64,000 bases of DNA from an uncultured Pseudomonadota bacterium (GCA_963749075.1 CAVVLJ010000016.1:480001-544000), one strand, 5' to 3'. Numbered from the stretch's first letter, positions 8,028 through 26,792 are shown. Notes: generated from the letters alone by a model not told the origin. A program made the numbers and translations.

Positions 8028-9584
8028 ATGCCGATCTTCCAGCTCGGTCAGCTCAACACGACGGCGCTCATCGTCCCCGACCTCTACGTCCAGATCGTCC
8101 CGCCGCAGGTGACGCTGTTGAACGGCGTGCCGACCAACGTCCTCGGGCTGGTCGGCACCGCGAGCTGGGGGCCGGCGAACGCGCCGACCATCGTCGGCAG
8201 CATGGCGGACTATGCCAGCCAGTTCGGCCCCATCATCGCGCGCAAATACGACCTCGGCACCGGCGTCGCCGCCGCCGTGCTGCAGGGTGCCGCTAACTTC
8301 CGCTGCGTGCGCGTGACGGACGGCACCGACGCGGCGGCCTCCTTGGCGCTCAAGGACACCACAACGCCCACCGCCGCGACCGGCCTCACGCTTACGGGGA
8401 AATACACGGGCTCGCTCGGCAACCAGCTCGTCGCCAGCGTCTTCAACGGCTCGCAGACCGGCACCTTCCGCATCGTCGTCACCATGCCGGGCTTGGTGCC
8501 CGAGACCTTCGACAATATCCCGGGCACCGGTGCCGCGCTCTGGGCCAACATGGCGAACGCCATCAACTTGGGCCTGGGCGGCCTGCGCGGCCCCTCCCAG
8601 CTCGCGGTCGCGAGTGCGGGGAGTGCCACCAACCCGCCGGCACTCGTCACCAACCAGGCCTTCGCGGGCGGCAGCGACGGCGCCACCACGATTACCGCTT
8701 CCGTGCTGGTCGGCGTCGACACGGTGCCGCGCAAGGGCATGTACGCCTTGAGGAACACCGGGACGAGCATCGCGGCGCTGGTCGATGCCGACGATTCGAC
8801 CGAATGGACGGCGCAGGTCGCCTTCGGCCTCTCCGAGGGCATCTACATGATCATGGTGGGGCCCGCCGGCGACAGCATCGCCAACGCGGTCTCGGTCAAG
8901 GCCACGGCCGGCATCGATTCCTACGCGGCCAAGCTCCTCTTCGGCGACTGGGTCTATTTCAACGATACGGTCAACAACCAGCTCCGCCTCATCTCGCCCC
9001 AGGGCTACATAGCCGGGCTCCTCGCCAATCTGGCACCCCAGGGCTCGAGCCTGAATAAGCAGCTCTACGGCATCGTCGGCACCCAGAAGTCGATGCAGAA
9101 CCAGACCTACTCCTCGGCCGACCTCCAGGCGCTCGTCGAAGCCGGCATCGACCTCATCGCCAACCCGGTGCCGGGCGGCAGCTACTTCGGCGCGCGCGTC
9201 GGCCACAACACCTCCTCGAACGCCGTCATCCAGGGCGACAACTACACGCGCATGACGAACTACATAGCTGCCACGCTCAACGCCGGGATGGGCATCTACG
9301 TGGGCCTCCTTCAGACGCCGACCGTGCGCGCCCAGGCCGCGGCCACGCTCGACAACTACCTCTACAATCTCGAGCAGCAGGGCCAGATCGGCACCGCCGA
9401 CGGCTCGCAGGCCTATTCGGTCGTGCTCGACGATTCCAACAACCCAGCCAGCCGCGTAGCGCTCGGCTACATGCAGGCCGACGTGCAGGTCATCTATCTC
9501 TCGGTCATCGAGAAGTTCCTCGTCAACATCGAGGGCGGCCAGTCGGTGCAGATCGTCAGCCAGGGTGTGACGCCGGTGAGCTGA
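8028..9584 (+). CDS. Contractile tail sheath protein
   Basis: 518 aa; VPDLYVQIVPP, GTASWGP.N.P, NYTRMTNYIA, NNPASRVALGYMQADVQV sheath motifs. Confidence 0.9.
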   Translation: MPIFQLGQLNTTALIVPDLYVQIVPPQVTLLNGVPTNVLGLVGTASWGPANAPTIVGSMADYASQFGPIIARKYDLGTGVAAAVLQGAANFRCVRVTDGTDAAASLALKDTTTPTAATGLTLTGKYTGSLGNQLVASVFNGSQTGTFRIVVTMPGLVPETFDNIPGTGAALWANMANAINLGLGGLRGPSQLAVASAGSATNPPALVTNQAFAGGSDGATTITASVLVGVDTVPRKGMYALRNTGTSIAALVDADDSTEWTAQVAFGLSEGIYMIMVGPAGDSIANAVSVKATAGIDSYAAKLLFGDWVYFNDTVNNQLRLISPQGYIAGLLANLAPQGSSLNKQLYGIVGTQKSMQNQTYSSADLQALVEAGIDLIANPVPGGSYFGARVGHNTSSNAVIQGDNYTRMTNYIAATLNAGMGIYVGLLQTPTVRAQAAATLDNYLYNLEQQGQIGTADGSQAYSVVLDDSNNPASRVALGYMQADVQVIYLSVIEKFLVNIEGGQSVQIVSQGVTPVS

Positions 9585-9617
9585 GGGACTGGGCGTGATG
9601 GACGAGGCGAGGGCGCC

Positions 9618-10046
9618 TCACGCTGCGTCGCGGCTCGCTACCACGAGCGATTTGCCGAGCGCGCGCATGGCGGCCTCGATCTGCTCGATCCCGGAGCGGT
9701 GCCGCAGGTCGAAGACGCGCATGACCTGGGGCATCGCCCAGCCAAGCCGCCGCGCGAGCGCCGCCTTGCTGATGCCCGCGCGGCGAAACTCGAGGTAGAG
9801 AAGTGCCTTGGCGGCCTCGAGCGGCGCCAGATGGACGAGCGGCCGGCCGCGCGCCGGAGACGGCTTGGGCAGCGCGCGCCCGTCGGCCACATAGGCGGAG
9901 ACGATCGTCTCGAGGAGATCGGCGGCGAAGCCGAGTGCCTCCTCCCTGGTCTCGCCGTGGGTGGCTCCGGTTCCGAAGTCGGGGAACGTCACCATGTAGC
10001 TTTTGCCGTCCCGCGCGACGGCTGCCGGATAGGCGAGCGTGGTCAT
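9618..10046 (-). CDS. hicB: HicB-family antitoxin
   Basis: YPA...YMVTFPDF..ATHGETREEAL..A.D.L N-domain plus C-terminal HTH (ISKAALARRLG). Confidence 0.85.
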   Translation of the reverse strand: MTTLAYPAAVARDGKSYMVTFPDFGTGATHGETREEALGFAADLLETIVSAYVADGRALPKPSPARGRPLVHLAPLEAAKALLYLEFRRAGISKAALARRLGWAMPQVMRVFDLRHRSGIEQIEAAMRALGKSLVVASRDAA

Positions 10047-10076
10047 CTAGCGGTTCTCCAGATCGGTCGGCTTCAA
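10047..10076 (-). pseudogene. Possible 3' remnant of hicA toxin
   Basis: LKPTDLENR-stop abuts the hicB ATG (TAGATG); sequence upstream of it is replaced by AT-richer DNA. Confidence 0.35.
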
Positions 10077-10227
10077 GCGGTCGTTTTAAGTGCATAAAAA
10101 TCTAGTTATTTCAATACGTTATAATTCCATCGTCCGATAACGGAAATTTAACAATCGCGAGATTATCACTTCCCGGGTGTCAACCCTATTGTAAAGTGTC
10201 AAGTGGGATGCTAAGTAGGATATTGCA

Positions 10228-11034
10228 ATGGGCAAAAAAATGAGCGACGCGCCGGTCTACTTCGTCCTTGGGCAGGTGCGCTTCAATGCGCTGCTCACTC
10301 TCGAGAGCTATGTGCCAACGATACAGGATTCATTGAGGAAAGTTGGGTATGCAGACTTTGCAAAAGCCACGATAGCAACGATCAATTTGAATATCGGCGT
10401 GCAAGTCGCCGTTAATCAAGTGCCGGTCGCACAAATTCCCCGCTATCAATTCTTAAATCAAGCCAAAACGGCTGGCTTCATTCTTACTCAATCGGCGCTC
10501 AGCTTCGAAACAACGGAATATCATACTTTTGAACCGTTTAGAGATGCATTGCTGTTGGGGCTGAAAACAATCGATGAGGCCACGGGAGGACTTAGCTTTT
10601 CCGAACGCATCGGAATTAGATTTCTTGATGCGGTATGTCCTCGACCGAACGAAAACCTGTCAGACTATCTAGCGCCGTCACTGATCGGACTAAGTGACAA
10701 GCTTAATGGCAGAAAACTCACACGGGCGGTTTCAGAGACGTGGTCCGCCTTAGATAAAACGAACCTTATGTGCCGGGTAGTTATTCATGACCAAGCCGCC
10801 AAAGGGCCTGGCTTTCCTCCCGATCTTCATCCAGAGGCGGTGATTTTTCAAATATCTGAAAAATTTCGCAACATAACCGGGCTATATGCTATTATTGACA
10901 CTGATAGTTGGCATGAAGAGAGGCAAAAATTCTCTATCGACAAAATTAAAGAAATCCTGGGGGGACTTCATGCTACCACGCGTCGATCATTCGACGATAT
11001 GGTCACACCGCACGCTCTCATGGTTTGGGAGTGA
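10228..11034 (+). CDS. TIGR04255-like protein
   Basis: MGKKMSDAPVYFVLGQVRFN, FETTEYHTFE.F, ERIGIRFLDAV, IIDTD, F...VTPHALMVW; AT-richer than flanks. Confidence 0.7.
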   Translation: MGKKMSDAPVYFVLGQVRFNALLTLESYVPTIQDSLRKVGYADFAKATIATINLNIGVQVAVNQVPVAQIPRYQFLNQAKTAGFILTQSALSFETTEYHTFEPFRDALLLGLKTIDEATGGLSFSERIGIRFLDAVCPRPNENLSDYLAPSLIGLSDKLNGRKLTRAVSETWSALDKTNLMCRVVIHDQAAKGPGFPPDLHPEAVIFQISEKFRNITGLYAIIDTDSWHEERQKFSIDKIKEILGGLHATTRRSFDDMVTPHALMVWE

Positions 11035-11041
11035 TTGTGAC

Positions 11042-11644
11042 ATGGAACGTCTAAATCAAACGACTCCATGGCTAGATAAAGACATAGTAGTGTCTTTTCT
11101 CATGCCGGTCACGCTCGCCTTGCAATTGGGCACGGGAGGGTATGAGACAAGAGAATATTACCAGCAGCGTTTACTCGATACGGTGCCAACTTATTATGGG
11201 CGTGCGGACTCCGGGCTTCCTGTCTCTGTGTCGAGGAATAATGCAAGCGACGTGCGCCACGTCCTGGACGTTCTTAAGCCTTCCGTTACAGGGCTTGCGA
11301 GATATTTGGGCGTCTCTCGGACGACGATTTACGACTGGAAGCACGGGAAGCAGGTCGGCGCGGACAATGCTGCGAAGTTGGCGAGCTTTTCGCGAGCGGC
11401 GGATGTCATCGCCGACGCGAATTTGCAGATGTCGCCCCTAGTTCGGGGAAGGAAACTCCCAGGCGGGATGACATTGTTCGAATCCATCGCGAGCGGCGCC
11501 GATGCCGAACAGGCCGCACTAGCGCTCGTCACAATGCTGCGCGAGGAGGCTGCTCGGCGAGATAGGCTCACAGCCCGGTTTTTGGGTCGCATCAAGCCCG
11601 ACACGGAGGGCACACACGATGCTCCTACCGTGTTCAATGAGTGA
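11042..11644 (+). CDS. HTH DNA-binding protein
   Basis: SVTGLARYLGVSRTTIYDWKHG helix-turn-helix. Confidence 0.7.
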   Translation: MERLNQTTPWLDKDIVVSFLMPVTLALQLGTGGYETREYYQQRLLDTVPTYYGRADSGLPVSVSRNNASDVRHVLDVLKPSVTGLARYLGVSRTTIYDWKHGKQVGADNAAKLASFSRAADVIADANLQMSPLVRGRKLPGGMTLFESIASGADAEQAALALVTMLREEAARRDRLTARFLGRIKPDTEGTHDAPTVFNE

Positions 11645-12493
11645 GTGCGATTTGTGGCCGGGCGTCACCCAAGAATCAGTTGGCGCCAGGGTCACGTTCT
11701 AACGGCCGATACCGCCGAGAAACTCGGACTAGCCCATCCAGCGAACCCCACAGAAACTACAGTTGTGGTCGTTTCTCACGACTGCGATCTCGTGCAGAGC
11801 GAAACGAGCGAACCGCTAGTGGAAGTCATTATTGGCCGCGAAATCAACGAAGACGAAGTCAATGGCAATTTCCTCAACGCAAAGGGATCGCGCACGCTTC
11901 ATCTTCCGTTTACCGCTGGGTCTAGTAGGCTTATTCTCGAGTTGTCCGCGACACAGAAACGCCAGATTGATAAGGCCGCGCTGATCCCCCATAACCCATC
12001 GCCGATCGCGCAACTGTCGCTAAGCGGGCGAAGAATTCTGCAGCGATGGCTAGCGGCGCGATACCTACGCGCCGCGTTTCCAGATGAATTTGTGGCTCGC
12101 TTCGGCAATTCAGGTGCTGACGAGCGGCTTAAAAAGATAGTGAAGAAGGCACAATCGCATCTCGTGGCAATCTATTTTGACCTCGATCGAGGGGAAGAAA
12201 AAGAGCGCGCAGGCGACGACGATCTTTATGAATTATCGATTTTCCTGGTACATCCAGTTGACCCCGATCCTGCGATCTCTCGGGAAGCTGCGCACGAGGC
12301 GAAGGTTCTTATCGAGCAAATGTTTGAGACATGTTGTAAGCACGATGGCCAGTGGCGGGGCATCCAGTTGGAAGGGTGCTACGTCCAGTCGGCTGCGGAA
12401 GTGACTTTGCACACAGTCGATTTTTTAAAGAAATGGAATACCGATTATCTAAGTTTCCGCGCCGATCCAGAAGGCCCGATGGTCGCCGTCTAG
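11645..12493 (+). CDS. Hypothetical protein (WRQG...VVSHDCD motif)
   Basis: 282 aa ORF, third gene of the AT-richer island; start uncertain. Confidence 0.65.
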   Translation: MRFVAGRHPRISWRQGHVLTADTAEKLGLAHPANPTETTVVVVSHDCDLVQSETSEPLVEVIIGREINEDEVNGNFLNAKGSRTLHLPFTAGSSRLILELSATQKRQIDKAALIPHNPSPIAQLSLSGRRILQRWLAARYLRAAFPDEFVARFGNSGADERLKKIVKKAQSHLVAIYFDLDRGEEKERAGDDDLYELSIFLVHPVDPDPAISREAAHEAKVLIEQMFETCCKHDGQWRGIQLEGCYVQSAAEVTLHTVDFLKKWNTDYLSFRADPEGPMVAV

Positions 12494-12626
12494 AATTTAC
12501 GGCTTGACCATCGATTATGTGCGGCCTTTTTTGCAATCACTTTTCTGCTCAGGAGACCGTGCGTCGGCTCGCCCCCCGCCGCGAGCCCGCCTTCCATCGT
12601 CGCCCGTCAAGTGAGAGGTGCCAGCC

Positions 12627-13058
12627 ATGCCGTTCAACAATTTCAGCGTCGGCAAGGACGTGACGCTGCAGATCGTCACCCAGCAGGGAGTGCTGCTCTC
12701 CTCGCTCCTCACCAGCTTCACCTCGAAGCAGCGCACCAACGACAAGACCGTCAAGGGCCTCGACGGCGTCATGCGCCCGCTCTTCCTGCCCGACGGCTGG
12801 GAGGGCACCTTCGAGTACGAGCGCGGCAGCTCCGACCTCGACGACTTCATCGCCGCGCTCGAGGCCAACTACTACGCGGGCGAGGCCATCACCGGCGCCA
12901 CCATCCTCGAGACGATCAGCGAGACCAACGGCCTGACCAGCCAGTACCGCTACGAGGGCGTGGTCTTCAAGCTCTCCGACGCCGGCGAATGGAAGGGCGA
13001 TTCGAGCGTCAAGATGCGCCTCGAGTTCTCGGCGAGCACGCGCAGCAAGGTGGTATGA
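12627..13058 (+). CDS. Tail tube protein
   Basis: MPFNNFSVGKD...PDGWEGTFEYER...ILETISE...QYRYEGV; size and position after sheath. Confidence 0.8.
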   Translation: MPFNNFSVGKDVTLQIVTQQGVLLSSLLTSFTSKQRTNDKTVKGLDGVMRPLFLPDGWEGTFEYERGSSDLDDFIAALEANYYAGEAITGATILETISETNGLTSQYRYEGVVFKLSDAGEWKGDSSVKMRLEFSASTRSKVV

Positions 13059-13071
13059 GCAGGCGCCCGCC

Positions 13072-14004
13072 ATGGCGCTGGTTCCCGATACCACGCTCAC
13101 GCTCGGCGACGTGAGCTTCGCCTCCTACGAGGTGCCGGAGCGCATCTCGTTCGGCGGCGCGCAGCGCCTCGCCGTGCACAAGGTCATCGGCGGCGCGCGC
13201 GTCGTCGACGCGCTCGGCCCGGACGATGCGGAGATCTGCTGGTCCGGCCGCTTCCAGAGCCCGAATGCCGGCCCGCGCGCGCGCCACCTCGACTATCTGC
13301 GCCGCCAGGGCACGGCGCTCACCCTAAGCTGGGACCAGTTCAGCTACAGCGTGGTGATCAGCCGCTTCGCGGCGGAGTTCGAGCGCTACTACCAGATTCC
13401 CTACCGCATCGCCTGCCTTGTCGTCGAGGACGACACCCAGCCGGTGACGACGAGCCCGTCGACGCCGGTCGACGAGCTGGTGGCGGAGGACGCGGCCGAG
13501 CTCGCGAGCCTCGCCTCCTCGAGCGGCAATAGCGGGATTGCCGGCAGCACCGGGCAGCTCCAGGCGCTCCTCGCCTCGTCGGCACCTCTCGCCGCGGCCT
13601 CGGCAGGGACGCTCGCCGCACTCGAGAGCCTGCTCGCCGAGCTCGCGGCGCTGATCGCGGCGGCCATTGCCGCGGCGGCCCCCGCCTTCGACGGCGGCGC
13701 CTCAGCGGGCTCGGGGGCGGCGGCGCTGCTCGGCCAGTCGAGTGCCGCCGCGGCACTCGCAATCCTCCTCGAGATGCAGGCGCTCGCCGGCCGCATTGCC
13801 TGCAACCTGCGCCGGGCCTCACCCGCCGCGTCCGGCCGCACCATCACTGTCGCCGGCGGCAATCTCTTCAGCATCGCCGCGGCACTCCTCGGCGACGCCA
13901 CCCAGTGGAGCCGCATCGCGGCCCTGAACGGCCTCACGGACCCGGTGCTCGCCGGCATCACGCAACTGCGCCTGCCGCCCATCGATACGAGCGCGGGCGG
14001 CTAG
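13072..14004 (+). CDS. Tube-initiator-like baseplate protein with C-terminal LysM-like domain
   Basis: FASYEVPERISFGGAQRLAVHK..GGARVVDALG N-domain; ITVAGGNLFSIAA..LGDATQW.RIAALNGLTDP C-domain. Confidence 0.7.
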   Translation: MALVPDTTLTLGDVSFASYEVPERISFGGAQRLAVHKVIGGARVVDALGPDDAEICWSGRFQSPNAGPRARHLDYLRRQGTALTLSWDQFSYSVVISRFAAEFERYYQIPYRIACLVVEDDTQPVTTSPSTPVDELVAEDAAELASLASSSGNSGIAGSTGQLQALLASSAPLAAASAGTLAALESLLAELAALIAAAIAAAAPAFDGGASAGSGAAALLGQSSAAAALAILLEMQALAGRIACNLRRASPAASGRTITVAGGNLFSIAAALLGDATQWSRIAALNGLTDPVLAGITQLRLPPIDTSAGG

Positions 14005-14025
14005 CATTCGGCGCGCCGGAGAACG

Positions 14026-14484
14026 ATGGAGAGAGACAGCATGCCGGACAACGTCAAGCTCACGCTCCACCCCGAGCGCCCGCGCGCCAACGGCGCCGAG
14101 GGTGCTGCCCACGCCGCGACACCGTCCCAGGAGATCCTGGAGCGCGCCAACCGCATCGTGCGCGTCTCCGACGCGCGCGGGCGCACCCTCGGCGTCAAGC
14201 AGCCGAGCCTCCTCGAGCGCTTGCGCATCTACGAGCTGGCCGGCGCGCAGAACGCCGAGAACAAGGTCTATCTCGGACTCGTGGGCACCGTGCTCGCGAT
14301 CGCCGAGCTCGACGGCGAGCGGCTGCCCTTCCCCGCCACCAAGCGCGAGCTCGAGGCGCGGGTGAGCCTGGTCGGCGACGAGGGGCTGGCGGCGGCCGGC
14401 CGCGCGCTCGCCGAGCATTTCAGCGAGCCCGCCGCCGCCGATGACGAGGAGACGGCAAAAAACGCATCGGGCACCCCGGCTTGA
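14026..14484 (+). CDS. Tail assembly chaperone (G-like)
   Basis: VSDARGRTL...GDEGLAA; carries the slippery heptamer A AAA AAC near its 3' end; alternative start 14041. Confidence 0.7.
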   Translation: MERDSMPDNVKLTLHPERPRANGAEGAAHAATPSQEILERANRIVRVSDARGRTLGVKQPSLLERLRIYELAGAQNAENKVYLGLVGTVLAIAELDGERLPFPATKRELEARVSLVGDEGLAAAGRALAEHFSEPAAADDEETAKNASGTPA

Positions 14485-14633
14485 AGCAGGCGCTCTACCT
14501 CGCTTCGAGAGGGGTGCCGTTCGACATCGCCTTCTCGCTGCCGGACCGCGAGCGGACCGGCTGGTGCCGCATGCTTGCCGAGCTCGAGCGGCCGGGCCTC
14601 GTGCGAATCGTCGACGGCCGCCGGCGCAGGTGA
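14457..14633 (+). CDS. Tail assembly chaperone GT extension reached by programmed -1 frameshift
   Basis: In-frame A-AAA-AAC at 14457-14463; the -1 frame reads KKRIGHPGLKQALYLASRGVPFDIAFSLP...RRRR-stop. Confidence 0.7.
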   Translation, partial: KKRIGHPGLKQALYLASRGVPFDIAFSLPDRERTGWCRMLAELERPGLVRIVDGRRRR

Positions 14634-14680
14634 AGACGCCCGCGATAATTATATATGTGTGCCGGCCGCAGAATTCGGAC

Positions 14681-14708
14681 TTGATTTGTTCCTGTCTTGC
14701 GCTATAAT
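14681..14708 (+). promoter_or_regulatory. Putative sigma70 promoter ahead of the immunity/effector cassette
   Basis: TTGATT-N16-TATAAT in a locally AT-rich gap. Confidence 0.55.
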
Positions 14709-14996
14709 GGGTGTAACGACCGTAGGATTTTCAATCTTAGGTCACTGCCCCTTGACGCCGGCCGCCGCCGACGGGCGCAGGAGCGGAAGCTGTCGTGAGG
14801 GGCTCGGCCATCGGACTGTCGGCGGCGTGGGCAGCGTCGGCGACCGGCCGGCCGGCCGCGCGGGAGTCGCTGCCGCTGCTTGCGGGTTGGGCGCAGCGCC
14901 CGTCTCCACAAGCGCGCGGCATCTCGCGACGGCCGGCCGGCCGTCTTTACCGGCGGTGTGGCGCCGTTTGGCGCCCTTGACGCCAGGAGAGCGAGC

Positions 14997-15743
14997 TTGA
15001 GACTGCCGTGGCGCAAGCGGGGGGCGGCGGCGGGCAATGCCGCAGGCCGCGCGCGCAAGCGCCCGCGCGTCATTGCGCGCGTGCTCGCCGGCTCAGCCCT
15101 CCTCCTCATCGCGGCCGTCTTCGGCCACGGCCTTGTGGTGAGCCTCTCGGGACCGAAGGAGGGCGCGCCCGGCCGCGACGGGGCGCCCACCGGCTACACC
15201 TACGATCTTACGCCGCTGATCCTCGAGATCGGCCCCCATAGATTCGTCGTCCCGCGCGGCTACCTCTACGCTTATGACGTAGGCAAGACGCGGCAGAGAT
15301 CGATCGGCATCCAGGTCATGCTGCCCGACTTCGAGCCGATCTCTCCGAGCAACAGCGCCTGCTTCGCCGACCAAGGAACGTGCAACGACATTTTCTGGCT
15401 GGGCCTGAGCCCGGGGCGCGGCGTGCCTGCCGAGCAACAATTGGCCAACGTGCTGCGCGGTGCCGAGGATAATGTTCGGCCTGCCTACGGGTTCGCTCAG
15501 CATTTGAACACGACCTTTGGCAGGCGTGCGGAGATATACACCTCAGGCGAGGGGCACGAGCTCCTGTTCCTCGATTGCGACACGCCCGATGAGCTGCTGC
15601 CTAGCTGCAGCCAAGAGCGCCCGCTCGGGGACGGCCTCGTGCTGTGGTACTATTTTCGCCGCGTCCATCTCGCCGAATGGCCCGACATCGAGCGCAAGGC
15701 GATGGCCTTGATCGCGCGTTTCGAGGGCGGGGACAGCCCTTGA
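14997..15743 (+). CDS. Exported/membrane-anchored immunity-like protein, copy 1
   Basis: TTG start after AGGAG; N-terminal hydrophobic segment; VPRGY..LPDFEP..C..C..YYFRRVHLAEWPDIERK; paralog downstream. Confidence 0.6.
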   Translation: MRLPWRKRGAAAGNAAGRARKRPRVIARVLAGSALLLIAAVFGHGLVVSLSGPKEGAPGRDGAPTGYTYDLTPLILEIGPHRFVVPRGYLYAYDVGKTRQRSIGIQVMLPDFEPISPSNSACFADQGTCNDIFWLGLSPGRGVPAEQQLANVLRGAEDNVRPAYGFAQHLNTTFGRRAEIYTSGEGHELLFLDCDTPDELLPSCSQERPLGDGLVLWYYFRRVHLAEWPDIERKAMALIARFEGGDSP

Positions 15744-16423
15744 AGCAGCCGTGGCCGAAGCGCCCGGGCGGCTGCATAAGACTCCTTGCCGCCTGCGTCC
15801 TCGCGCTCGTCGCGGTCATCTTCGGCCACGGCCTCTTGGGGAACCTCTCGGGACCGAAGGAGGGCGAGCTTGGCCGCGACGGCGCGCCCACCGGCTACAC
15901 CTACGATCTCGGGCCGGTCGCGGTAACGCTCGGCCCCTACGCGCTCCGCATTCCGCACGCCTACATTATCTGGAAGTCCGATCGTGGGCTTGTCGTGCTC
16001 GACGCTATCCTCCCCGACCTCGAGCCGATCCGGCCGGCCACCAGCGGCTGCTTTGCCAGGCCATGGGAATGCCATCGCGTCGTGGGGATCGCGCTTGGAG
16101 AGGAGAAGTTGCTCCCCGCCGACGAGCAGCTCGCGAATATCACCCGCGGCCTTGAGGACAAGACCCGGCCGGTCTTCGGGTTCATCCAGCATATCAATAC
16201 GACCATACGAGCGATGGCGGAGACCTACAGCATGGGCCAGGGACGCGACATGCGCCTTCTCTCTAGCGATCCGCCGGACAAGGCCGATGCCGGTTGCGAC
16301 GAGGATCGGGAAATCAGGGAAGGGTTGGTCATGACTTTCCGGTTCGATCGAGAGCGCCTTGCCGAATGGCCGGAGATCGAGCGCAAGGTGATGGGTCTGG
16401 TTGCGACCTTCATGCGCGAGTAG
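15740..16423 (+). CDS. Exported/membrane-anchored immunity-like protein, copy 2
   Basis: TTGA overlap; shares FGHGL..LSGPKEG..GRDGAPTGYTYDL and LAEWP.IERK.M.L with copy 1, with a divergent middle. Confidence 0.6.
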   Translation: MKQPWPKRPGGCIRLLAACVLALVAVIFGHGLLGNLSGPKEGELGRDGAPTGYTYDLGPVAVTLGPYALRIPHAYIIWKSDRGLVVLDAILPDLEPIRPATSGCFARPWECHRVVGIALGEEKLLPADEQLANITRGLEDKTRPVFGFIQHINTTIRAMAETYSMGQGRDMRLLSSDPPDKADAGCDEDREIREGLVMTFRFDRERLAEWPEIERKVMGLVATFMRE

Positions 16424-16496
16424 CCGGCCTGCGCGCGGCCCACGCCGGCTGATCGACGACCGCGAACCGACGCCCGGGCTCCTGAGGCATCATCCC

Positions 16497-17990
16497 ATGG
16501 ACAAGGAATTGCGGCTGCATCCCGAGGCGCTCGCCGCGGCGAGAGCCTATTGGCGGGCCAAGGATTATGCCGCGATGTACCGCGTGATCGCCCGGGATTT
16601 GCGCAGCCTCGGCGCGGATCACGATACCCAGGTCTGGTACGACCTGGCGGCCGGGATCAACGATCCGAAGTCGGAAAGCTTCCGCGGCGCCTTGGGGCGC
16701 TACTACGTGATGGAGAAGCTCTTCCAAGAGACCGGGCGGCTGATCGCGCCGTTCGGGGACGACTTCAACCGGGTGTCCGACGAGATCGCCTGGAAGGTTG
16801 GAAAATATGCCTACGAGCATGACGGCCTCGTTAGGACTTGGCCGGAAATCATGCAGAGGGATGCGCTGGCCGCAACGGAAGGTTTCCACAGCAGCCCAGA
16901 GGTCTGGCCCGGCTTCGCGGACGCCGAGCTCCTCGACTGGTGGCCGAAGTCGCTGTTCCCAAGGAGCTTCGACGACCATAGCTTTGCTGCCGACCTGCCG
17001 CCGGCCACGGCGACGGAGGTCGGACGCGCGGGCCTGAATGCCTTTTTCGACGAGGTCGAGGCGCCCGCTTGGGGTCCGCTCCGCTTCTACATCGAGGTGG
17101 GGCGCCTTGCCGCCCAGGGCCTCTACTCGACATGGCGCGGCGATTTCCGCGGCCACGACGGCGATTGGCTCGGCACCGGCAAACTCTATTGGCAGGAGCT
17201 CGGCAAGGAGCTCGAGCGTCCGTGGCATTGGGGCGACGACGTGCCGCCCGCGCCAGGTCCGCTCGGCGGGGACCTCCTCTTGCACGGCGCCGGCTCGCGC
17301 CTTTCGCTCATGGCAGCGCCGGACTCCCATTCCGGGCCGGCGCCGTCCGTCGCCGCCTCCTTCGCCGCCGATCGCGCGCGCACCGCCCTGGCGCTCCCCG
17401 GTTCCTTCGAGCCGGATTTAGCGATGCGCGGCTCTTGGATATGGCCGGACGCAGCGGCGCCGGCGACCCCGCCCGCGCCCCCGTTCGCCGCGGACGCCTC
17501 GCCTCTCCTCGCGTTGCCCTATCTGCCGGAGATGCGCGACGGGCTCGAGCTTCGGCATCTCGCGCTGCCTCCCGCCTGGGGCTCCGGGCATCTCTTCCCG
17601 GAGCTGTCGTTTCTTCCCGCGCGCGCCGCCGCCGACGGCTTCGATCCCGAGCCTGGCGACGTGCCGCACTGGCCGGCGGCCGACGAGTTCGTGCCTGACG
17701 GCGAGGCGAGCTTGCACGGTGACGGACCGCCGCCCCAGGGAGAGACCGGCGAGGACGGAAGGCGCCTCGAGCGCGTCGAGGGCGGCATCGGGCGGATCGA
17801 GCAGTCGCTGGCCGAGGTGGTCGCCAAGCTCGAGGCGAGCTACGCGCGGCGCGAGCGGCTCGGCCGCCGCGAGATCATTCGCGTGGTCTCCGAGTGGCTG
17901 GAGTACCAAGCCAACAAGCCGCGCAACATGTCGTGGCGCTACGACTTCCGCCGCACCTACACACCGCCGGGCCCCGTGCCCGCCATGTGA
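16497..17990 (+). CDS. Putative toxin/effector in the tape-measure gene position
   Basis: 497 aa: globular N-domain (YAAMYRVI..WYDLAAGIN..SDEIA..WPG), Pro/Ala linker, C-terminal coiled coil. Confidence 0.55.
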   Translation: MDKELRLHPEALAAARAYWRAKDYAAMYRVIARDLRSLGADHDTQVWYDLAAGINDPKSESFRGALGRYYVMEKLFQETGRLIAPFGDDFNRVSDEIAWKVGKYAYEHDGLVRTWPEIMQRDALAATEGFHSSPEVWPGFADAELLDWWPKSLFPRSFDDHSFAADLPPATATEVGRAGLNAFFDEVEAPAWGPLRFYIEVGRLAAQGLYSTWRGDFRGHDGDWLGTGKLYWQELGKELERPWHWGDDVPPAPGPLGGDLLLHGAGSRLSLMAAPDSHSGPAPSVAASFAADRARTALALPGSFEPDLAMRGSWIWPDAAAPATPPAPPFAADASPLLALPYLPEMRDGLELRHLALPPAWGSGHLFPELSFLPARAAADGFDPEPGDVPHWPAADEFVPDGEASLHGDGPPPQGETGEDGRRLERVEGGIGRIEQSLAEVVAKLEASYARRERLGRREIIRVVSEWLEYQANKPRNMSWRYDFRRTYTPPGPVPAM

Positions 17991-18028
17991 GCCCCGCTGC
18001 CGCGCGCGACGCGGCACCGCGCAAGGCG

Positions 18029-18064
18029 TATATATGCCGTGAGGGATATGCAACCGCGCATGGG
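18029..18064 (+). promoter_or_regulatory. Conserved leader element, copy 1 (degenerate left arm)
   Basis: TATATAT...CAACCGCGCATGGG shared with 21749 and 24301. Confidence 0.45.
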
Positions 18065-18076
18065 AAGGGAGTTGCG

Positions 18077-18838
18077 ATGCGGCCCTACGACGGGGCAGAG
18101 CGCACGAGACGGGAGGGGTTAGGGTTTCGGCGCGGCCTCGCCGCCGCCGCGCTGCTGACGGTCCTCGCCCTAGCAGCGCCGGCTGCCGCGCGCTACGGCG
18201 ATTTCGACTTCTGGGGCCGCACTTGGCCGCTGCCGATCTATGTGCCGGTGTGGAGCGCCGACGCGGCGGTCTGCCAGCGCATCGTGAAGGCGCTCAATGG
18301 TGCCCGGCGGCCGTCGCTGTCGCTATATAGCAATAAGATATTCCTCCGCTGGCATGACCATCCGGCATACCCTCGCAAGAACGGCACTGAGTGGAAGCTG
18401 GGGGAAGACTACGGCCGTTGGATGGAGGTGCCGCTCTTCAACGACGGTAGGCCGGTCATCGCGCTCAAGGTCATCTCTCCAGGCGCGCATTTCGTGCAGG
18501 AGGTCTTCTATGTCTTTGACGATCTCGCCTACTACCGCTCCCAGGACTGGCTGAAGGGCAAGCTGTGGGAAGACCCAAGTGTTCTGCAGCCGATCGAGCC
18601 GTTCCTGGGCAAGCAATTCTACACGCTGATGCCGCTGCCGAGGACAATCAAGGATTACCATTACTGGAGTCTCGATTGGATTGGCAGTGACGAGGAGACG
18701 AATATCGCAGATTTTAATGGCCGATTATACGAAGTCATCAGGAGGCCATCTGATGAGGCCATTCTTATTCTATATTTTTCCGAGGAACGCAGAGGACATG
18801 CGGTTTGTCTCATCGGGCCGAAGAAACTGGTTCGATGA
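18077..18838 (+). CDS. Exported immunity/inhibitor-like protein, pair 1
   Basis: 253 aa; signal peptide ending APAAA; RYGDFDFWGR.WPLPIYVPVWSADAAVC...VCLIGPKK; two conserved Cys. Confidence 0.7.
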   Translation: MRPYDGAERTRREGLGFRRGLAAAALLTVLALAAPAAARYGDFDFWGRTWPLPIYVPVWSADAAVCQRIVKALNGARRPSLSLYSNKIFLRWHDHPAYPRKNGTEWKLGEDYGRWMEVPLFNDGRPVIALKVISPGAHFVQEVFYVFDDLAYYRSQDWLKGKLWEDPSVLQPIEPFLGKQFYTLMPLPRTIKDYHYWSLDWIGSDEETNIADFNGRLYEVIRRPSDEAILILYFSEERRGHAVCLIGPKKLVR

Positions 18839-18880
18839 GGCCTACCAGGCTCTCGATTTACGCGAGAAGAGGACTGCGTC

Positions 18881-20533
18881 ATGGCTGACCTGCCGCCCAC
18901 CGGCAATTACGACAAGGCCGCTCGGTACAAGAGTTTCCGCAACGAGCTCATAGGGCAGGCCGAGAACCCAAATCTCGCAAGGGGACTGATCAGCAGCCCA
19001 CCGTAGTCGACGGCCATCTGACGCTTGGCTTCGGTTACGACCTCGCGACGCGCCGCTCGAATCCCGAGGGGATCCTCGCCGACCTGGCGTTGGCCGGCAT
19101 TGCGCTCACGGTCCAACAGACCGCGGCGATCCTCTACTATGGCGGCAAACCGAATTCGGTCATCCGGGGCTATCTCGACGATCTCGCCGCGTTCGGAACG
19201 ACGGTCACCGACGACGACCGCAAGTTCGTCGAGAATTTGACTGCGCAGGATCGGACAGATGAGGGCCTCGGTCACCTCCTGTCCGACCTCCTGATCACGA
19301 AGCCGCAGGGCACGGCGCTGCTCGAGATCGCCGTCTCGGAGAAGGAGAAGCGGCTCGACAGGATCATCGAGGAGCGTGCGAAGAAGCTCAGGAAGAAGGA
19401 TAAGGGCCCTGAGGCGGAGCGGCTCGAGCAGTTGACGCAGCTCACCGACCGGCGCGCGGTGCTGGTCGATATGCTCTACGAGACGGCGAGCCTCCTCGGT
19501 CCCAGGCTCCTCCACGCGCTCGGTATGGGCGATGCGGCCGCGGCGGCGGTCGAGATCGCCTTCTTCAGCAACAAGGACCCGGTCGACAACAGCGGCGACG
19601 ACCCGCGCGACCGCACGCGCGCCGAGAAGTTCCTCGGCGGCGCGCTCGAGCCGCGCACGGAGGAGGAGGCGCGGGCGTTCCTCCGCGCGCTCGCGGAGCG
19701 CTCCGGCGATCTGGCCGAGGCCCTGGCGAAACGACGATTTGCCAATGAGGGCGTTGAGGGGGATTACCGCGCTGCCGTCGGCAAGCTCGCCAACGTGGCG
19801 CTGCGCCGGCTCGGCGTGGCGGCGACGATCGCTTTGAGCGACCGCGGCCGCCTCGCGGTGCAACAGGCGGTGCCGCTCGACCGCTTCGCCGAGGCCTTCG
19901 GCCTCACGGCGCTCGAGGTGGCGCTCGTCAACCCCGAGCTCTTCCCGACCGCACCCGACCAGTGGGCGCCGACCATGCTGAGCGTGGGCGCCGCCCCGCA
20001 TCTGCCGACCGCGGCGGAGCGGGCGGCGCTCGAGCGGACGCTGCGGGATGCCGGGCCGCTCCTGGCGCCCGAGCGGTACGAGGAGCTGCGCCGGCGCTAT
20101 CTCGACAATCTGCATCCGCCGCCGCGGGGCCAAGCCGAGCTGCCCGGCGGCGGCCCGTCGCTGGCCGTGGTGCCGCGCGCGGCGCCCGGAGCTCGCGCTC
20201 GCGCTCGAGGCGGCGCTGCCGCCGCCGCAGCCGTGGTCCGCGGCCTTTGCGCGCGACGCCGAGCTGATTTGGAGCGCGCCGGTCCAGGCGCTCCTCCCGC
20301 GCGACGTCCGGGACGCCTGGCTTCGCTTTGAGGGCGGGCTCTCCGAGGAGGAGGAGGCAGCACTCCGGGTGCTGCCGGCTCCGCCGCCGCGGGGCTGGGG
20401 TGTTGCCGCCCGCCGGCGCGCGGGACCCCGTCTCGACGTGGCGGCGCTCGACCGCATCATCGCGAAGATTGAGCGGGTGGTGCGCCTCTCCGAGATCCTC
20501 CTCGAGAAGGTCGAGGCGTGGAACCGCGGGTAG
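18881..20533 (+). CDS. Lysozyme-like + LysM-like effector, pair 1 (two frameshifts, near 18980 and 20186)
   Basis: Paralog of 22601..24235 over its full length; one base missing in GCAAGGGG and one extra in GGCGCCCGG relative to paralogs; may be sequencing error. Confidence 0.6.
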
Positions 20534-20608
20534 GGCTCCGCCCGGCTTAGGCGAGGCGTCGGCCCTCGGCAATTCTCCCCATTGAGCGCGCGCAAGGTGC
20601 GGGGCGGC

Positions 20609-21697
20609 ATGAGCGACACCTCATCGAGCGGCACCTCCGCAGGGCGGCGGCCGCGCGCGGCGATCGACGTGGCAGGGACGCGGCTCGGCGGCATCGTCGA
20701 GCTCGAGGTGAGCAGCAACAACCTGCAGTCGCCGGATAGCTTCCGCGCGACGCTTGCGCTCGGCGCGCTGCCGCAATCGCTCGGCCTCGCCTATTGGGCC
20801 CAAGCGAGCGACGTGAGCGTCGAGCTCTTCGCGGGCTTCGCGGTGGACGGCGGGACGGGCGCGGACGCCACGCTCGCGAGCCTCATCCAGGGCAAGGTCG
20901 ACCGCGTCGAGATCGATCCCGTCGCCGCCGAGCTGCACCTCTCCGGCCGCGACCTCTCGGCGCCGCTCTTCGACAACCGCACCAGCGAGAAGTTCGACAA
21001 CCAGACGAGCTCGGAGATCGCCACCACGCTCGCGGCGCGGCGCGGGCTCAATCCGGTCGTGACGGCGACCACCACGCTCGCGGGGCGCTATTACGAGATC
21101 GAGACGGCGCGGCTCACCCGCGAGGTGGTCGAGTGGGACCTCCTCTCCTATCTCGCGCGCGAGGAGGCCTTCGATCTCTTCGTGCGCGGCGGGAGCCTCT
21201 ATTTCCAGCCGCCGGCGGGAGAGGCCGCGGCCACCTATGCGGTGCAGTATACGCCGGCCGCCGGCGGCACGCCTGCGGGGGGCAACTTCATCGACTTGAA
21301 GCTCGCGCGCGACCTCACCCTCGCGGAGGGTGTGAGCGTCACGGTCAAGAGCTGGAACGCCAAGGATGGCACCGGCTTCGCGCTGAGCGCCCCGCAGGCA
21401 GGCACGGGCGGACTCAGCTACAGCTTCGTGCTGCCCGGCCTCAAGCCGAGCCAGGCGCTCAAGTTCGCCTCCTCGCAATATAATGAGATCACGCGGCACG
21501 AGCGCAGCCTCGCGGTGACGCTCCCCGGCGACACCTCGCTCACGCCGCAATCGCGCCTGACGCTCGAGGGCACCGGCAGCGGCTTCGACCAGAGCTACTT
21601 CATCACCGGCATCGAGCGCCGCTTCTCCTTCGAGGGCGGCTTCACAATGACCGTCTGCGCCAAGAACGTCTCGCCCGGCGGCGACCCCGCGGGCTGA
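20609..21697 (+). CDS. Baseplate hub (late control D-like) protein
   Basis: GKVDRVEIDP..LHLSGRDL..DNRTSEKF.NQTSSEIA, EWDLLSYLA.EE.F, VTVKSWN, FDQSYFI. Confidence 0.8.
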   Translation: MSDTSSSGTSAGRRPRAAIDVAGTRLGGIVELEVSSNNLQSPDSFRATLALGALPQSLGLAYWAQASDVSVELFAGFAVDGGTGADATLASLIQGKVDRVEIDPVAAELHLSGRDLSAPLFDNRTSEKFDNQTSSEIATTLAARRGLNPVVTATTTLAGRYYEIETARLTREVVEWDLLSYLAREEAFDLFVRGGSLYFQPPAGEAAATYAVQYTPAAGGTPAGGNFIDLKLARDLTLAEGVSVTVKSWNAKDGTGFALSAPQAGTGGLSYSFVLPGLKPSQALKFASSQYNEITRHERSLAVTLPGDTSLTPQSRLTLEGTGSGFDQSYFITGIERRFSFEGGFTMTVCAKNVSPGGDPAG

Positions 21698-21748
21698 CGG
21701 CAGCACCCCCGGCGCGCGCTCTCGCGCTGGCGGCATCGACGGAAGCGG

Positions 21749-21784
21749 TATATATCCCATGTCGGTTGTGCAACCGCGCATGGG
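21749..21784 (+). promoter_or_regulatory. Conserved leader element, copy 2
   Basis: TATATAT followed by hairpin CCCATG-T-CGGTTG-TG-CAACCG-CG-CATGGG. Confidence 0.5.
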
Positions 21785-21796
21785 GCGGGAGCTTCG

Positions 21797-22558
21797 ATGC
21801 GGCCGGGCGACGGGACGGAGCGCACGGGACGAGAGGGGTTGCGGCTTCGGCGCGGCCTCGCCGCCGCCGCGCTGCTGACGCTCGTCGCCATTGCAGCGCC
21901 CGCTGCCGCGCGCTACGGCGATTTCGACTTCTGGGGCCGCAGCTGGCCGCTGCCGATCTACGTGCCGGTGTGGAGCGCGGACGCGGCGGTGTGCGGGCGC
22001 ATCGTTAAGGCGCTCAACGCTGCCCGGCGGCCGTCGATGTCGCTCTACAGCAACAGGATTTTCCTCCGCTGGCAGGACTATCCGGCGGACGCGCGCACCA
22101 ACGGTCCCGATTGGCACCCATACCAAGACCATGCGCGCTGGATGGAGGTGCCATTCTTCAACGACGGCTGGCCGGTCATCGCGTTCAAGGTTATCTATGA
22201 GAGCAGCCGCTTCATCGACGAGCATCTCTACGTCTTCGACGATTTGGCCTACTACCGCTCCGAGGACTGGCTGACGGACAAGCTGCGGCAGAACCCGCGT
22301 GTATTGATGCCGATCGAGCCGTTCCTGGCCAAGCAGTTCTACACATTGATGCCGCTGCCGAAGACAATGAAGGATTACCATTATTGGAGTCTCGATTGGG
22401 TCGGGTATGATGAGGAGACGAATATAGCGAATATTGATGGCCGATTATATATAGTCATTAGGAGGCCGTCTGGTGAGGCCATTCTCGTATTATTGTTTTC
22501 CGAGGAACGCAAGGGGCGCGCAGTGTGTCTCATCGGGCCAAAGAAACTGGTTCGATGA
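21797..22558 (+). CDS. Exported immunity/inhibitor-like protein, pair 2
   Basis: 253 aa paralog of 18077..18838. Confidence 0.7.
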   Translation: MRPGDGTERTGREGLRLRRGLAAAALLTLVAIAAPAAARYGDFDFWGRSWPLPIYVPVWSADAAVCGRIVKALNAARRPSMSLYSNRIFLRWQDYPADARTNGPDWHPYQDHARWMEVPFFNDGWPVIAFKVIYESSRFIDEHLYVFDDLAYYRSEDWLTDKLRQNPRVLMPIEPFLAKQFYTLMPLPKTMKDYHYWSLDWVGYDEETNIANIDGRLYIVIRRPSGEAILVLLFSEERKGRAVCLIGPKKLVR

Positions 22559-22600
22559 GGCCTGCCGGGCTCTCGATTTACGAGAGAAGAGGGTTGTGGC

Positions 22601-24235
22601 ATGGCTAACTCGGCGCTCACCGGCAATCACGACGAGGCCAAACAGTACAAGAAATTCCGCAACGAGCTCATCGAGCAGGGCGAGAACCGGGACCTCGCAA
22701 AGGGGACTGATCAGCAGCCCACGGTAGTCGACGGTCATGTAACGCTCGGCTTCGGCTACGACCTGGCGACGCGGCGCGCGGATCCCTACGGGATTCTCGC
22801 CGACCTCGCCTCCGCCGGCATCGCCCTCACGGCCAAACAGACCGCGGCCATCCTCTTCTATGGCGGGGCGCCGATCGCCAGCATCCTGCACTATCTCGGC
22901 GTTCTCGCCGTCTGGACGACGGTCACCGACGACGACCGCAAGTTCGTTGAGAATTTGAGCGCGCAGGATCGGACGGATGAGGGCCTTGGCCACCTTCTGT
23001 CCGGCCTCCTGATCACGAAGCCGCAGGGCGTGGCGTTATTCGAGATCGCCGTTTCGGAGAAGGAGAAGAGGTTCGACGGGATCATCGAGGGGCTTCAGAA
23101 GGACCTCAAGAAACACGAGAAGGTCATTGAGGCGCAGCAGCTCGAGCGGCTCAAGCTGCTCTCCGACCAGCGCGCGGTGCTGGTCGATCTGCTCTACCAG
23201 ACGGAGCGTTTCCTCGGGCCGAGGCTCCGCGACGCGCTTATGGCGAACGACGCGATGGCGGCGGCGACCGAGATTGCCTTCTTCACCAATTCGGCAGGGA
23301 CGCAGCACGGCGACGAGCGCAACCTCGCGCGCTCCAGGGCGTTCCTCGGCCATGCCTTCGAGCCGACGACGGAGGCGGAGGCGCGGTCGGTCCTGCATGT
23401 TCTCGCCGAGCGGCAAGGAGACCTGGCGCAGACGCTGGCGTCACGGCGGCGTCACGGCAAGGTTCTGAAGGACTACCGCGACCAGGTGAGCGCCGCGGCC
23501 AACGCGGCGCTGCGCAGGCTCGGCGTGGCGACGACGGTCGCCTTGAGCGATAGCGGCCGCCTCGCGGTGCAACAGGCGGTGCCGGTCGACCGCTTCGCCG
23601 AGGCCTTCGGCCTCACGGCCCTCGAGGTGGCGCTCGTCAATCCCGAGCTTTTCCCGACGGCACCCGACCAGGGGGCGCCGACCATGCTGCGCGCGGGTGC
23701 CGCCCCGCATCTGCCGACCGCGGCGGAGCGGGCGGCGCTCGAGCGGACGCTACGAGATGCCGGACCGCTCCTGGCACCCGAGCGGTTCGAGGAGCTGCGC
23801 CGGCGCTATCTCGACAATCTGCATCCGCCGCGGCGCGGTCATGCCGAGCTGCCCGACGGCGCCCCGTCGCTGGCCGCGGCGCGGCTCGTGGCGCCGGAGC
23901 TCGAGCTCGAGGCGGCCCTGCCGCCGCCGCCGGCCGGGTCTGCCGCCTTCGCGCGCGACGCGGAGCTGACTTCGAGCGCGCCGGTCCAGACGCTCCTCCC
24001 GCGCGACGGCCGGGACGCCTGGCTTCGCCTTGAGAGCGGGCTCTCCGAGGCGGAGGCCGCGGTACTCTGGGCGCGGCCCGTTCCGCCGCCGCGGGGCTGG
24101 GGCGCCGCCGCAGGCCGGCGCGCGGCATCTCGCCTGAGCGCGGAGGCGCTCGACCGCATCATCGCGAAGATCGAGCGGGCGGTGCGCCTTTCCGAAATCC
24201 TCCTCGAGAAGGTCGAGGCGTGGAACCGCGGGTAG
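22601..24235 (+). CDS. Lysozyme-like + LysM-like effector, pair 2 (intact)
   Basis: GHVTLGFGYDL, ITKPQG.AL.E, QRAVLVDLLYQ..LGPRL.DAL..D..AA.EI (T4-lysozyme/GH24-like); FAEAFGLTALEVALVNPEL..MLRAGAAPHLP (LysM-like); Pro/Ala linker; C-terminal coil. Confidence 0.7.
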   Translation: MANSALTGNHDEAKQYKKFRNELIEQGENRDLAKGTDQQPTVVDGHVTLGFGYDLATRRADPYGILADLASAGIALTAKQTAAILFYGGAPIASILHYLGVLAVWTTVTDDDRKFVENLSAQDRTDEGLGHLLSGLLITKPQGVALFEIAVSEKEKRFDGIIEGLQKDLKKHEKVIEAQQLERLKLLSDQRAVLVDLLYQTERFLGPRLRDALMANDAMAAATEIAFFTNSAGTQHGDERNLARSRAFLGHAFEPTTEAEARSVLHVLAERQGDLAQTLASRRRHGKVLKDYRDQVSAAANAALRRLGVATTVALSDSGRLAVQQAVPVDRFAEAFGLTALEVALVNPELFPTAPDQGAPTMLRAGAAPHLPTAAERAALERTLRDAGPLLAPERFEELRRRYLDNLHPPRRGHAELPDGAPSLAAARLVAPELELEAALPPPPAGSAAFARDAELTSSAPVQTLLPRDGRDAWLRLESGLSEAEAAVLWARPVPPPRGWGAAAGRRAASRLSAEALDRIIAKIERAVRLSEILLEKVEAWNRG

Positions 24236-24264
24236 CATGCCGATGGACGCCTTCCTCAACCGGC
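23575..24264 (+). repeat. Near-identical direct repeat, copy A (copy B about 26131-26820)
   Basis: Effector 3' halves plus the first 28 nt of the spike gene are almost base-identical. Confidence 0.85.
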
Positions 24265-24300
24265 CGAGCCCTGCCGCGCTGGCCGCATCGACGTTGACAG

Positions 24301-24336
24301 GATATATCTCATGTCGGTTATACAACCGACTATGGG
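24301..24336 (+). promoter_or_regulatory. Conserved leader element, copy 3
   Basis: GATATAT followed by GTCGGTT-ATAC-AACCGAC inverted repeat. Confidence 0.5.
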
Positions 24337-24348
24337 ATGGAGGTCCCG

Positions 24349-26791: not shown

Positions 26792-26792
26792 C

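Follow-up and report, generated by a model that had tools for sequence, protein, structure and literature searches.

A repeated prophage cassette combining a chaperone homolog, membrane-anchored proteins and a modular protein with a tape-measure-like C-terminal end

The 64,000-nucleotide stretch of DNA analysed here comes from an uncultured Pseudomonadota bacterium (GCA_963749075.1, CAVVLJ010000016.1:480001-544000, or G000:C16:480001-544000 in our numbering). This whole stretch, which we call the window, holds a myovirus-type prophage that spans its bases 1-35000 and a further 10 kb upstream, and whose nearest counterparts among described phages are Ralstonia phage Raharianne and Komagataeibacter phage phiKX1. 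At the place expected for the tape-measure gene we find two membrane-anchored paralogs, par1 and par2, and a protein of 497 amino acids (aa), p497, behind a tail assembly chaperone homolog. From comparison of related loci, a chaperone homolog, one or more membrane proteins and a protein ending in the conserved C-terminal module of p497 (the C-module) form a repeated, movable unit. The initial annotation had recognized chaperones, a promoter, two paralogs and the 497-aa protein, and all are present at or near the positions it gave. The features are as follows (ORF, open reading frame).

14026..14484, plus strand: p152, tail assembly chaperone homolog (Raharianne gp38, blastp E 3.7e-19)
14481..14633, plus strand: p50, 50-aa ORF overlapping the chaperone stop codon (resembles phiKX1_590, E 0.002)
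14681..14708, plus strand: sigma-70-like promoter site in an AT-rich gap (TTGATT, 16-nt spacer, TATAAT; 10 of 12 positions, a consensus match only)
14715..14996, plus strand: GC-rich leader with a long hairpin, from the promoter-like site to par1 (RNA folding)
14997..15743, plus strand: par1, membrane-anchored paralog of 248 aa, TTG start, 46% identical to par2
15740..16423, plus strand: par2, membrane-anchored paralog of 227 aa, TTG start, its start codon overlapping the par1 stop codon
16497..17276, plus strand: p497 residues 1-260, N-domain (AlphaFold2, HMMER relatives)
17277..17771, plus strand: p497 residues 261-425, Pro/Ala-rich spacer (Ala 18%, Pro 16%, Leu 12%, Gly 10%)
17772..17990, plus strand: p497 residues 426-497 and stop codon, conserved C-module (HMMER, hhalign)

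The p497 gene runs from the ATG at 16497 to the stop codon at 17990, and the three-part protein proposed earlier, with an N-domain, a Pro/Ala spacer and the C-terminus quoted at the time, is indeed what it encodes. AlphaFold2, run on a 9-row alignment, models residues 1-145 as a confident helical bundle and residues 146-260 with low confidence; the pLDDT (the model's per-residue confidence) per 10-residue block is 75-98 up to residue 140 and <52 beyond. An exhaustive HMMER search with p497 as the query, run on 1.84 billion representatives, returned 14 proteins at E <= 0.001, in which two groups of relatives separate. Indeed, p440 and P0003-P0006 match p497 in the last 70-100 residues only (E 7e-15 to 5e-10), and eight others, P0007-P0014, match residues ~8-150 only and are devoid of the C-module (E 4e-9 to 1e-4). 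p497 is therefore a fusion of two modules that are distributed independently.

The C-module carries at least three types of N-domain: the p497 type, the type found in p440 and P0003, and a class-3 lipase (Pfam PF01764, scoring 29 bits where the cutoff is 22), the latter in P0006 and in an ORF of metagenome contig L011. The p497 and p440 N-domains have no detectable relation to each other (hhalign P 0.29). One conserved module, with a putative trafficking role, is thus joined to varied domains, and the variable part is N-terminal, which inverts the order of classical polymorphic toxins. Taken alone, the C-module falls in no family of Pfam at E <= 0.1 or of PHROGs at E <= 1, and a word-indexed search of 5.8 billion clusters with it returned p497 and p440 only.

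To what is this module related? In Raharianne, phiKX1 and the closest genomic relative, the G079 prophage (sheath 61% identical), the sheath and tube genes are followed by a chaperone-position gene (phrog_20383), a small ORF, the tape-measure-slot gene, a p310 homolog and gpD, and then in G079 by gpV, gpJ and gpI. The slot proteins are of 636, 742 and 471 aa, respectively. Raharianne gp41 (E 1.5e-4) and phiKX1_610 (E 1.3e-6) weakly match tape-measure PHROGs, and P0017, a relative of the G079 slot protein, matches phrog_167 at E 0.0065. In the window the order is instead tube, p310, p152, p50, the AT-rich gap with the promoter-like site, the leader, par1, par2 and p497, so that p497 occupies the slot position after the chaperone homologs p152/p50, with par1 and par2 intervening. 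The C-module is likely related to tape-measure C-terminal ends, although this relation is shallowly supported. We compared an alignment of the C-module (A1, 6 rows) with one of the C-terminal 67 residues of slot proteins of the G079 type, P0015-P0017 (A3, 3 rows), and hhalign matched them over 42 ungapped columns with P 1.3e-4 and a probability of 54%. The matched stretch stops a few residues short of the C-terminus in both families. None of 300 column shuffles, with a mean of 9.4, an sd of 2.0 and a maximum of 20.3, reached the score of 26.9, and reversing the alignment gave 11.8. The earlier impression that the tail of p497 recalls tape-measure C-termini is therefore borne out, in its last ~42-70 residues, against the syntenic slot protein of G079.

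The slot after the chaperones does lack a conventional tape measure, as had been proposed. No Pfam or PHROGs tape-measure profile matches p497 at E <= 0.01, and its maximum Kyte-Doolittle value in a 19-residue window is 0.83, against 1.62-2.35 for Raharianne gp41, phiKX1_610 and P0015-P0017. By this crude rule (a value >= 1.6), a hydrophobic segment is present in all five related slot proteins and in none of the four C-module proteins. A predicted transmembrane helix is common among tape measures, and in T4 the C-terminal loop of the tape measure is held at the distal tube/hub while its N-end adjoins the DNA (bioRxiv 10.64898/2026.03.06.709160). Such a distal position of the loop fits an anchoring role for the C-module.

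The unit is not confined to this slot. A second cassette lies in the same genome about 0.7-5 kb upstream of the window start (positions 13079-17309 of L005, G000:C16:462001-480000), between the portal and the head genes. The portal is followed there by a 102-aa ORF, a paralog of the chaperone p152 (44% identity; phrog_20383 E 8e-15), three par paralogs and p440, a 440-aa protein with the same C-module. The G+C content of this cassette is 0.54-0.65, against 0.70-0.74 in its flanks, and a strong terminator-like hairpin follows p440 (L005 17412-17433). The C-module is also found on six soil metagenome contigs, whose genes were checked by tblastn and Pfam.

L006: C-module protein, chaperone homolog, small ORF
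L007: C-module protein of 593 aa whose N-domain is of the p440 type, tube (77% identity), chaperone (51% identity with p152)
L008: C-module protein, chaperone homolog, start of p310
L009 and L010: propeller gene, then a lipase protein with the C-module; both contigs begin within the propeller gene
L011: gpV fragment, then a chaperone homolog, a membrane-anchored WD40/PD40 propeller (Pfam E 7e-19) and a Lipase_3 protein with the C-module

A chaperone homolog is thus present on four of the six contigs, and the remaining two begin inside the partner gene. The cassette stands after a gpV fragment in L011, before the tube gene in L007 and before p310 in L008, and overall it occupies at least four different sites among structural genes; all the contexts seen consist of phage structural genes. 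The three-module architecture occurs independently in full-length ORFs of L007, L009 and L010. The initial annotation had overlooked that the chaperone belongs to the unit, the upstream duplicate, and three further cassettes of an exported and a large protein around the gpD-like gene (see below).

The par1 and par2 proteins are 46% identical over 222 aa (E 1e-71), and par2 is 31-33% identical over its full length to the three paralogs of the upstream cassette; the five proteins are homologous lengthwise, at 31-46% identity. Each of them has one hydrophobic helix, N-terminal and preceded by a basic stretch, with 19-residue Kyte-Doolittle maxima of 2.24 in par1 and 2.55 in par2. The description of the two paralogs as exported stands in a modified sense, since a single N-terminal hydrophobic segment points to membrane-anchored proteins with their bulk outside. 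We infer from this topology that the bulk of par1, par2 and the upstream paralogs faces the periplasm. Conserved ends and a variable middle had also been reported, which is partly correct: the identities per 30 alignment columns (8, 18, 15, 11, 10, 16, 9 and 17) draw a mosaic along the two proteins. At the DNA level, their best block (132 nt, 83%) covers the membrane helix and the next motif.

Neither paralog falls in a family of Pfam (E <= 0.01), PHROGs or NCBIfam, and a word-indexed search of 5.8 billion clusters with par2 returned par1 and par2 only. In NCBIfam, par2 scored 18 bits with a type IV secretion inhibitor family whose cutoff is 500 bits, which was dismissed as noise. The AlphaFold2 model of par2 (5 rows) has a mean pLDDT of 41.8 and is unfit for a fold search, and a complex prediction that paired p497 residues 1-215 and par2 residues 36-227 reached a median of 0.30, against a mark of 0.32 and without controls, and allowed no verdict. 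The par proteins accompany the p497 and p440 types of N-domain, and the WD40/PD40 propeller accompanies the lipase type (L011). Tail proteins assembled in the cytoplasm cannot meet periplasmic par domains, so that any action of par1 and par2 on an N-domain would be on an incoming protein.

The N-domain of p497 had been likened to the N-terminal domains of RTX/hemolysin-type proteins, a resemblance that our searches do not support. Indeed, p497 matches no family in Pfam (E <= 0.01), PHROGs (E <= 0.01) or NCBIfam, and a profile search of solved structures with the N-domain returned chance-level rows only (E 0.033 and 0.61). The fold comparison that had been proposed for the N-terminal part was equally negative: Foldseek against the PDB gave the N-domain model no match at E <= 0.001, a wide VIA-align search gave generic helical bundles with a best Z of 5.4, and residues 1-260 had no usable match in the ESM Atlas. 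With p497 as the query, the C-module was absent from the 60 relatives searched. The genomic context of the N-domain relatives was sought with an alignment of them (A6), which found no locus in genomes or viral contigs; P0009 had no match among plasmids, and tblastn of p497, p544 (the large protein of the neighbouring cassettes) and P0009 against the phage collection gave none either. P0009, a 498-aa relative of the N-domain, has a different, Ala-rich C-half whose end resembles tape-measure C-ends by eye; this candidate was rejected, as the likeness does not reach significance against A3 (P 0.21) or A1 (P 0.27).

Upstream of par1, p152 also matches phiKX1_580 (E 2.5e-7) and phrog_20383 (E 3.2e-19). 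Raharianne gp38 is the gene immediately following the tube gene, and the position of the gene in the relatives makes p152 a putative chaperone. In the G079 prophage, the chaperone is followed by an equivalent of p50 (tblastn E 3.6e-6), and p50 may be a second chaperone product or partner. Two sigma-70-like sites occur in 5 kb, against 0.5 +/- 0.7 in shuffles. The leader 5' of par1 folds through a long GGCCGGCC-rich hairpin; positions 14715-15010 reach -171.4 kcal/mol (z -2.9), and 1 of 200 shuffles folds equally well. No Rfam family was found in 9000-28000, leader included, and no RNA datasets occur among the listed sequencing runs.

The prophage frame around the unit is provided by the following genes.

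8028-9584: sheath gene (phrog_23, E 6e-49)
12618..13058, plus strand: tail tube gene, 146 aa (phrog_12993, E 5e-42; 77% identical to the L007 tube ORF)
13072..14004, plus strand: p310, hub or tube-initiator-type protein with a LysM-like C-end (homolog of Raharianne gp42, blastp E 1e-62)
18077..20533, plus strand: cassette of a second kind, with an exported 253-aa protein (18077-18838) and a frame-broken p544-family copy (tblastn, signal-peptide-like segment)
20582..21697, plus strand: gpD-like baseplate hub gene (phrog_52, E 1e-30; Raharianne gp43, E 8e-86)
26793-27392: gpV-like spike gene (PHROGs)

Genes for the terminase large subunit (phrog_979, E 1.6e-31) and the portal (phrog_2662, E 1.5e-39) lie upstream of the window, and PHROGs matches place a head-tail adaptor gene inside it and the gpJ and gpI genes further downstream. 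The gpD-like gene is the far end of the tape-measure slot. The p310 protein has further matches to phiKX1_720 (E 2e-22), phiKX1_730 (E 1.5e-12; both blastp) and phrog_21362 (E 3.5e-78). Its gene directly follows the tube gene and precedes the chaperone in the window, in Raharianne, phiKX1 and G079 the homologous gene comes after the tape measure, and on contig L008 it comes directly after the chaperone homolog. An insert at 9618-12493 separates the sheath from the tube genes; it carries a minus-strand HicB-like antitoxin with a helix-turn-helix (HTH) and three plus-strand genes of much lower G+C content (0.47-0.58), one of them with an HTH. In G079, a 251-aa protein with hydrophobic helices is encoded on the opposite strand between the chaperone and slot genes (L012, G079:C37, 12032-12787), and the same junction therefore houses a membrane-protein gene there too.

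Three tandem cassettes surround the gpD-like gene (18077-20533, 21797-24235 and 24337-26791), each made of an exported protein of 253-257 aa and a ~540-aa protein of the p544 family. The large gene is frame-broken in copies 1 and 3. In the ESM Atlas, the N-part of this family points only weakly to lysozyme or pesticin-type domains, with scores of 0.80-0.85 that lie below the trust line, and the C-end of the family shows no similarity to A1 (P 0.078) or A3 (P 0.054). No relatives of the p544 family were found in 400 genomes of the class.

The window belongs to a 23-contig genome with 5.15% contamination, and the sequencing runs that hold the stretch are soil metagenomes. A 2,225-nt Logan contig of run X1, with 2 differing letters, covers 15090-17314, from par1 through the N-half of p497, although X1 may be the source sample of the genome and is then not independent. 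Contigs of runs X1 and X2 also confirm 12000-13197, and one of them covers the tube-p310 junction. Among the contigs of the same two runs there are loose ends at 14320 and 14531, and one X2 contig joins the gpV gene (27113) back to the chaperone start (14041) with 37 other letters between. This joint mirrors the gpV-then-chaperone order of L011, which suggests that prophage variants co-exist in the same soil.

Several known systems resemble parts of this locus. The exclusion moron gp15 of HK97 lies between the tail chaperone and tape-measure genes, is independently transcribed and encodes an inner-membrane protein; it is expressed from the prophage, and its block to entry depends on the tail of the incoming phage (PMC3594210). 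par1 and par2 share with it the position, a promoter-like site (a consensus match only) and the N-terminal hydrophobic segment. However, gp15 is a small YebO-like protein of a siphophage, whereas par1 and par2 have 227-248 aa and a large outside domain and are duplicated, and the protein downstream of them is itself modular and multi-copy. As regards YebO, par1 and par2 belong to no Pfam family at E <= 0.01, gp15 itself not having been compared. In T4, the membrane protein Imm binds the tape measure and stops secondary infection, and the tape measure gp29 combines a transmembrane helix with a helical bundle forming a channel (bioRxiv 10.64898/2026.03.06.709160). p497 differs from gp29 by the lack of a hydrophobic segment and by its exchangeable N-domain. 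An action of par1 and par2 on an incoming protein would follow the same logic as T4 Imm and, at the same genomic position, HK97 gp15.

The closest parallels on the effector side are Sle1/Tme, modular tape-measure-related cargo of actinobacterial contractile injection systems with diverse functional domains, one such effector being paired with a neighbouring immunity gene (PMC13277306, PMC11126660). Those systems are headless and their cargo has a DUF4157 partner, a coiled-coil N-part and a variable C-end. Here, terminase and portal genes are present, the variable domain is N-terminal, the partners appear to face the periplasm, a chaperone travels with the unit and there are several copies; no DUF4157 was found by Pfam among the 19 neighbouring proteins scanned. 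The polymorphic MuF toxins also reuse a virion protein, of the head, as a carrier and are prophage-encoded with immunity genes (PMC5576092, PMC12226406, PMC3482391). In these the head-protein carrier is at the N-end and the toxin at the C-end, and Pfam finds no MuF domain here. Envelope-attacking enzymes that a contractile device delivers, and that a periplasm-facing neutraliser of the producer or lysogen counters, are known from the Tle lipases of type VI secretion systems, with their periplasmic Tli immunity proteins, and from T4 gp5 lysozyme, countered by Spackle. Their carriers are different, and an enzyme domain occurs in the lipase relatives of L009-L011, not in p497. Full-text searches listed, within the library covered, no description of a phage cassette of this kind.

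Taken together, the locus may encode an exchangeable payload borne by a tape-measure anchor, with a chaperone of its own for loading and with periplasm-facing partners for immunity or superinfection exclusion, a reading to which we give a probability of about one half. A tape-measure anchor bearing an exchangeable domain is likely; the roles of toxin and immunity are plausible. The interpretation in the initial annotation is thus partly supported, by the slot, the C-end likeness, the varied N-domains on the same C-module and the periplasm-facing partners, and its RTX/hemolysin likeness is not. In the mechanism that we infer, the ~70-aa C-module would descend from the C-end of the tape measures of this phage lineage and would carry, on a ~165-aa Pro/Ala spacer, an exchangeable N-domain, here a helical bundle of ~145 aa. 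The chaperone and the C-module would place p497 in the tube lumen at tail assembly, and tail contraction would expel it into the envelope of the struck cell. In the lysogen, par1 and par2 would be made from their own promoter and sit in the inner membrane facing the periplasm, where they would neutralise the incoming N-domain and thereby provide immunity and superinfection exclusion together. The N-domain might kill or merely aid entry.

A number of results weigh against this reading. Residues 1-270 of p497 have no recognisable toxin or enzyme family or fold, even though some relatives carry Lipase_3. The C-end likeness comes from a single comparison of shallow profiles: a plain hmmsearch with A1 against the 823 ORFs of three related phages ranks the G079 protein second at E 0.7, and the tape measures of Raharianne and phiKX1 are missing from its list of matches up to E 10. 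Another point is the rarity of the family, the C-module being present in 1 of 401 genomes of the class, that of the window itself, and in none of the scanned species genomes or viral contigs. The par proteins are common to two N-domain types with no detectable relation, which weakens a strict partner specificity. The genome is a soil metagenome assembly, and the chaperone-par1 join (14484-15090) is bridged by no contig among those listed for the runs. Furthermore, we found no other tape-measure candidate between the tube and gpD genes, so that p497 may simply be the tape measure of the phage, and the G079 slot protein is of similar length (471 aa) and also has a long low-complexity middle.

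This last point leads to an alternative that we consider possible but rather doubtful, in which p497 is an ordinary, short and divergent tape measure with a structural N-domain, confined to setting the length of the tail and opening a path for the DNA, and par1 and par2 are unrelated exclusion morons that landed there as HK97 gp15 did (PMC3594210). It would account for the place of p497 behind the chaperone homologs, for a C-end similar to that of the slot proteins, for a tail module with no other candidate and for the opposite-strand membrane-protein gene of G079. However, a second chaperone-par-C-module unit in the head region of the same prophage, units at several non-tape-measure positions on related contigs, and N-domains that are exchanged, one of them being a lipase, weigh against it, as do the missing profile match and the missing hydrophobic segment, which all five related slot proteins possess. 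Alternatively, the unit could be a conventional toxin-immunity moron foreign to the virion, released by lysis or another route, with a C-module that has a different purpose and a functionless or chance likeness to tape measures. Plain HMM searches that give no link between the C-module and tape measures, the own promoter-like site, and the G+C content and terminator-like hairpin of the upstream cassette would agree with this. We nonetheless judge it unlikely, as a chaperone homolog accompanies the unit in the window, upstream and on four of the six contigs, always among phage structural genes, and the conserved part is a C-end in register with those of tape measures. An assembly artefact or a decaying prophage, with misjoined strain variants of a soil metagenome bin or gene remnants, is more improbable still. 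The number of contigs, the contamination, the two frame-broken p544 copies out of three, and the loose ends and the X2 joint that betray co-existing variants could all suggest it; but the reading frames of par1, par2, p497, p440 and both chaperones are intact, single contigs cover par1 to the N-half of p497 and the tube-p310 junction, and the three-module architecture recurs independently on L007, L009 and L010.

Returning to the exchangeable payload on a tape-measure anchor, a broader picture can be sketched as a tentative conjecture only. One lineage of temperate myophages of soil Alphaproteobacteria might carry mobile cassettes of three parts, a tail chaperone of their own, one or more immunity proteins facing the periplasm and an effector on a C-terminal tape-measure anchor, and the tail lumen might deliver exchangeable envelope-attacking payloads (lipase, possibly muramidase, unknown helical domains). 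Under this same conjecture, the cassettes would form a phage-borne polymorphic toxin system with several effectors that share the tape-measure position or compete for it, and lysogens would be protected from the particles of their kin.

Tape measures are regarded as one-per-phage rulers and channel formers. Modular tape-measure effectors have already been described in actinobacterial injection systems, and the general kind is therefore known. What differs here is a complete prophage, the inverted domain order, a travelling chaperone, periplasm-facing partners and several copies. If our reading is correct, complete phages, beyond the headless injection systems, would use the tube lumen for modular cargo, and the last ~70 residues would directly indicate the part of a tape measure that is sufficient for loading. 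Superinfection exclusion would be tied to toxin immunity, and the cassette would be a natural model for putting foreign proteins into contractile tails. An anchor with swappable domains, its own chaperone and periplasm-facing partners, present several times per prophage, would alter the current picture of the tape measure.

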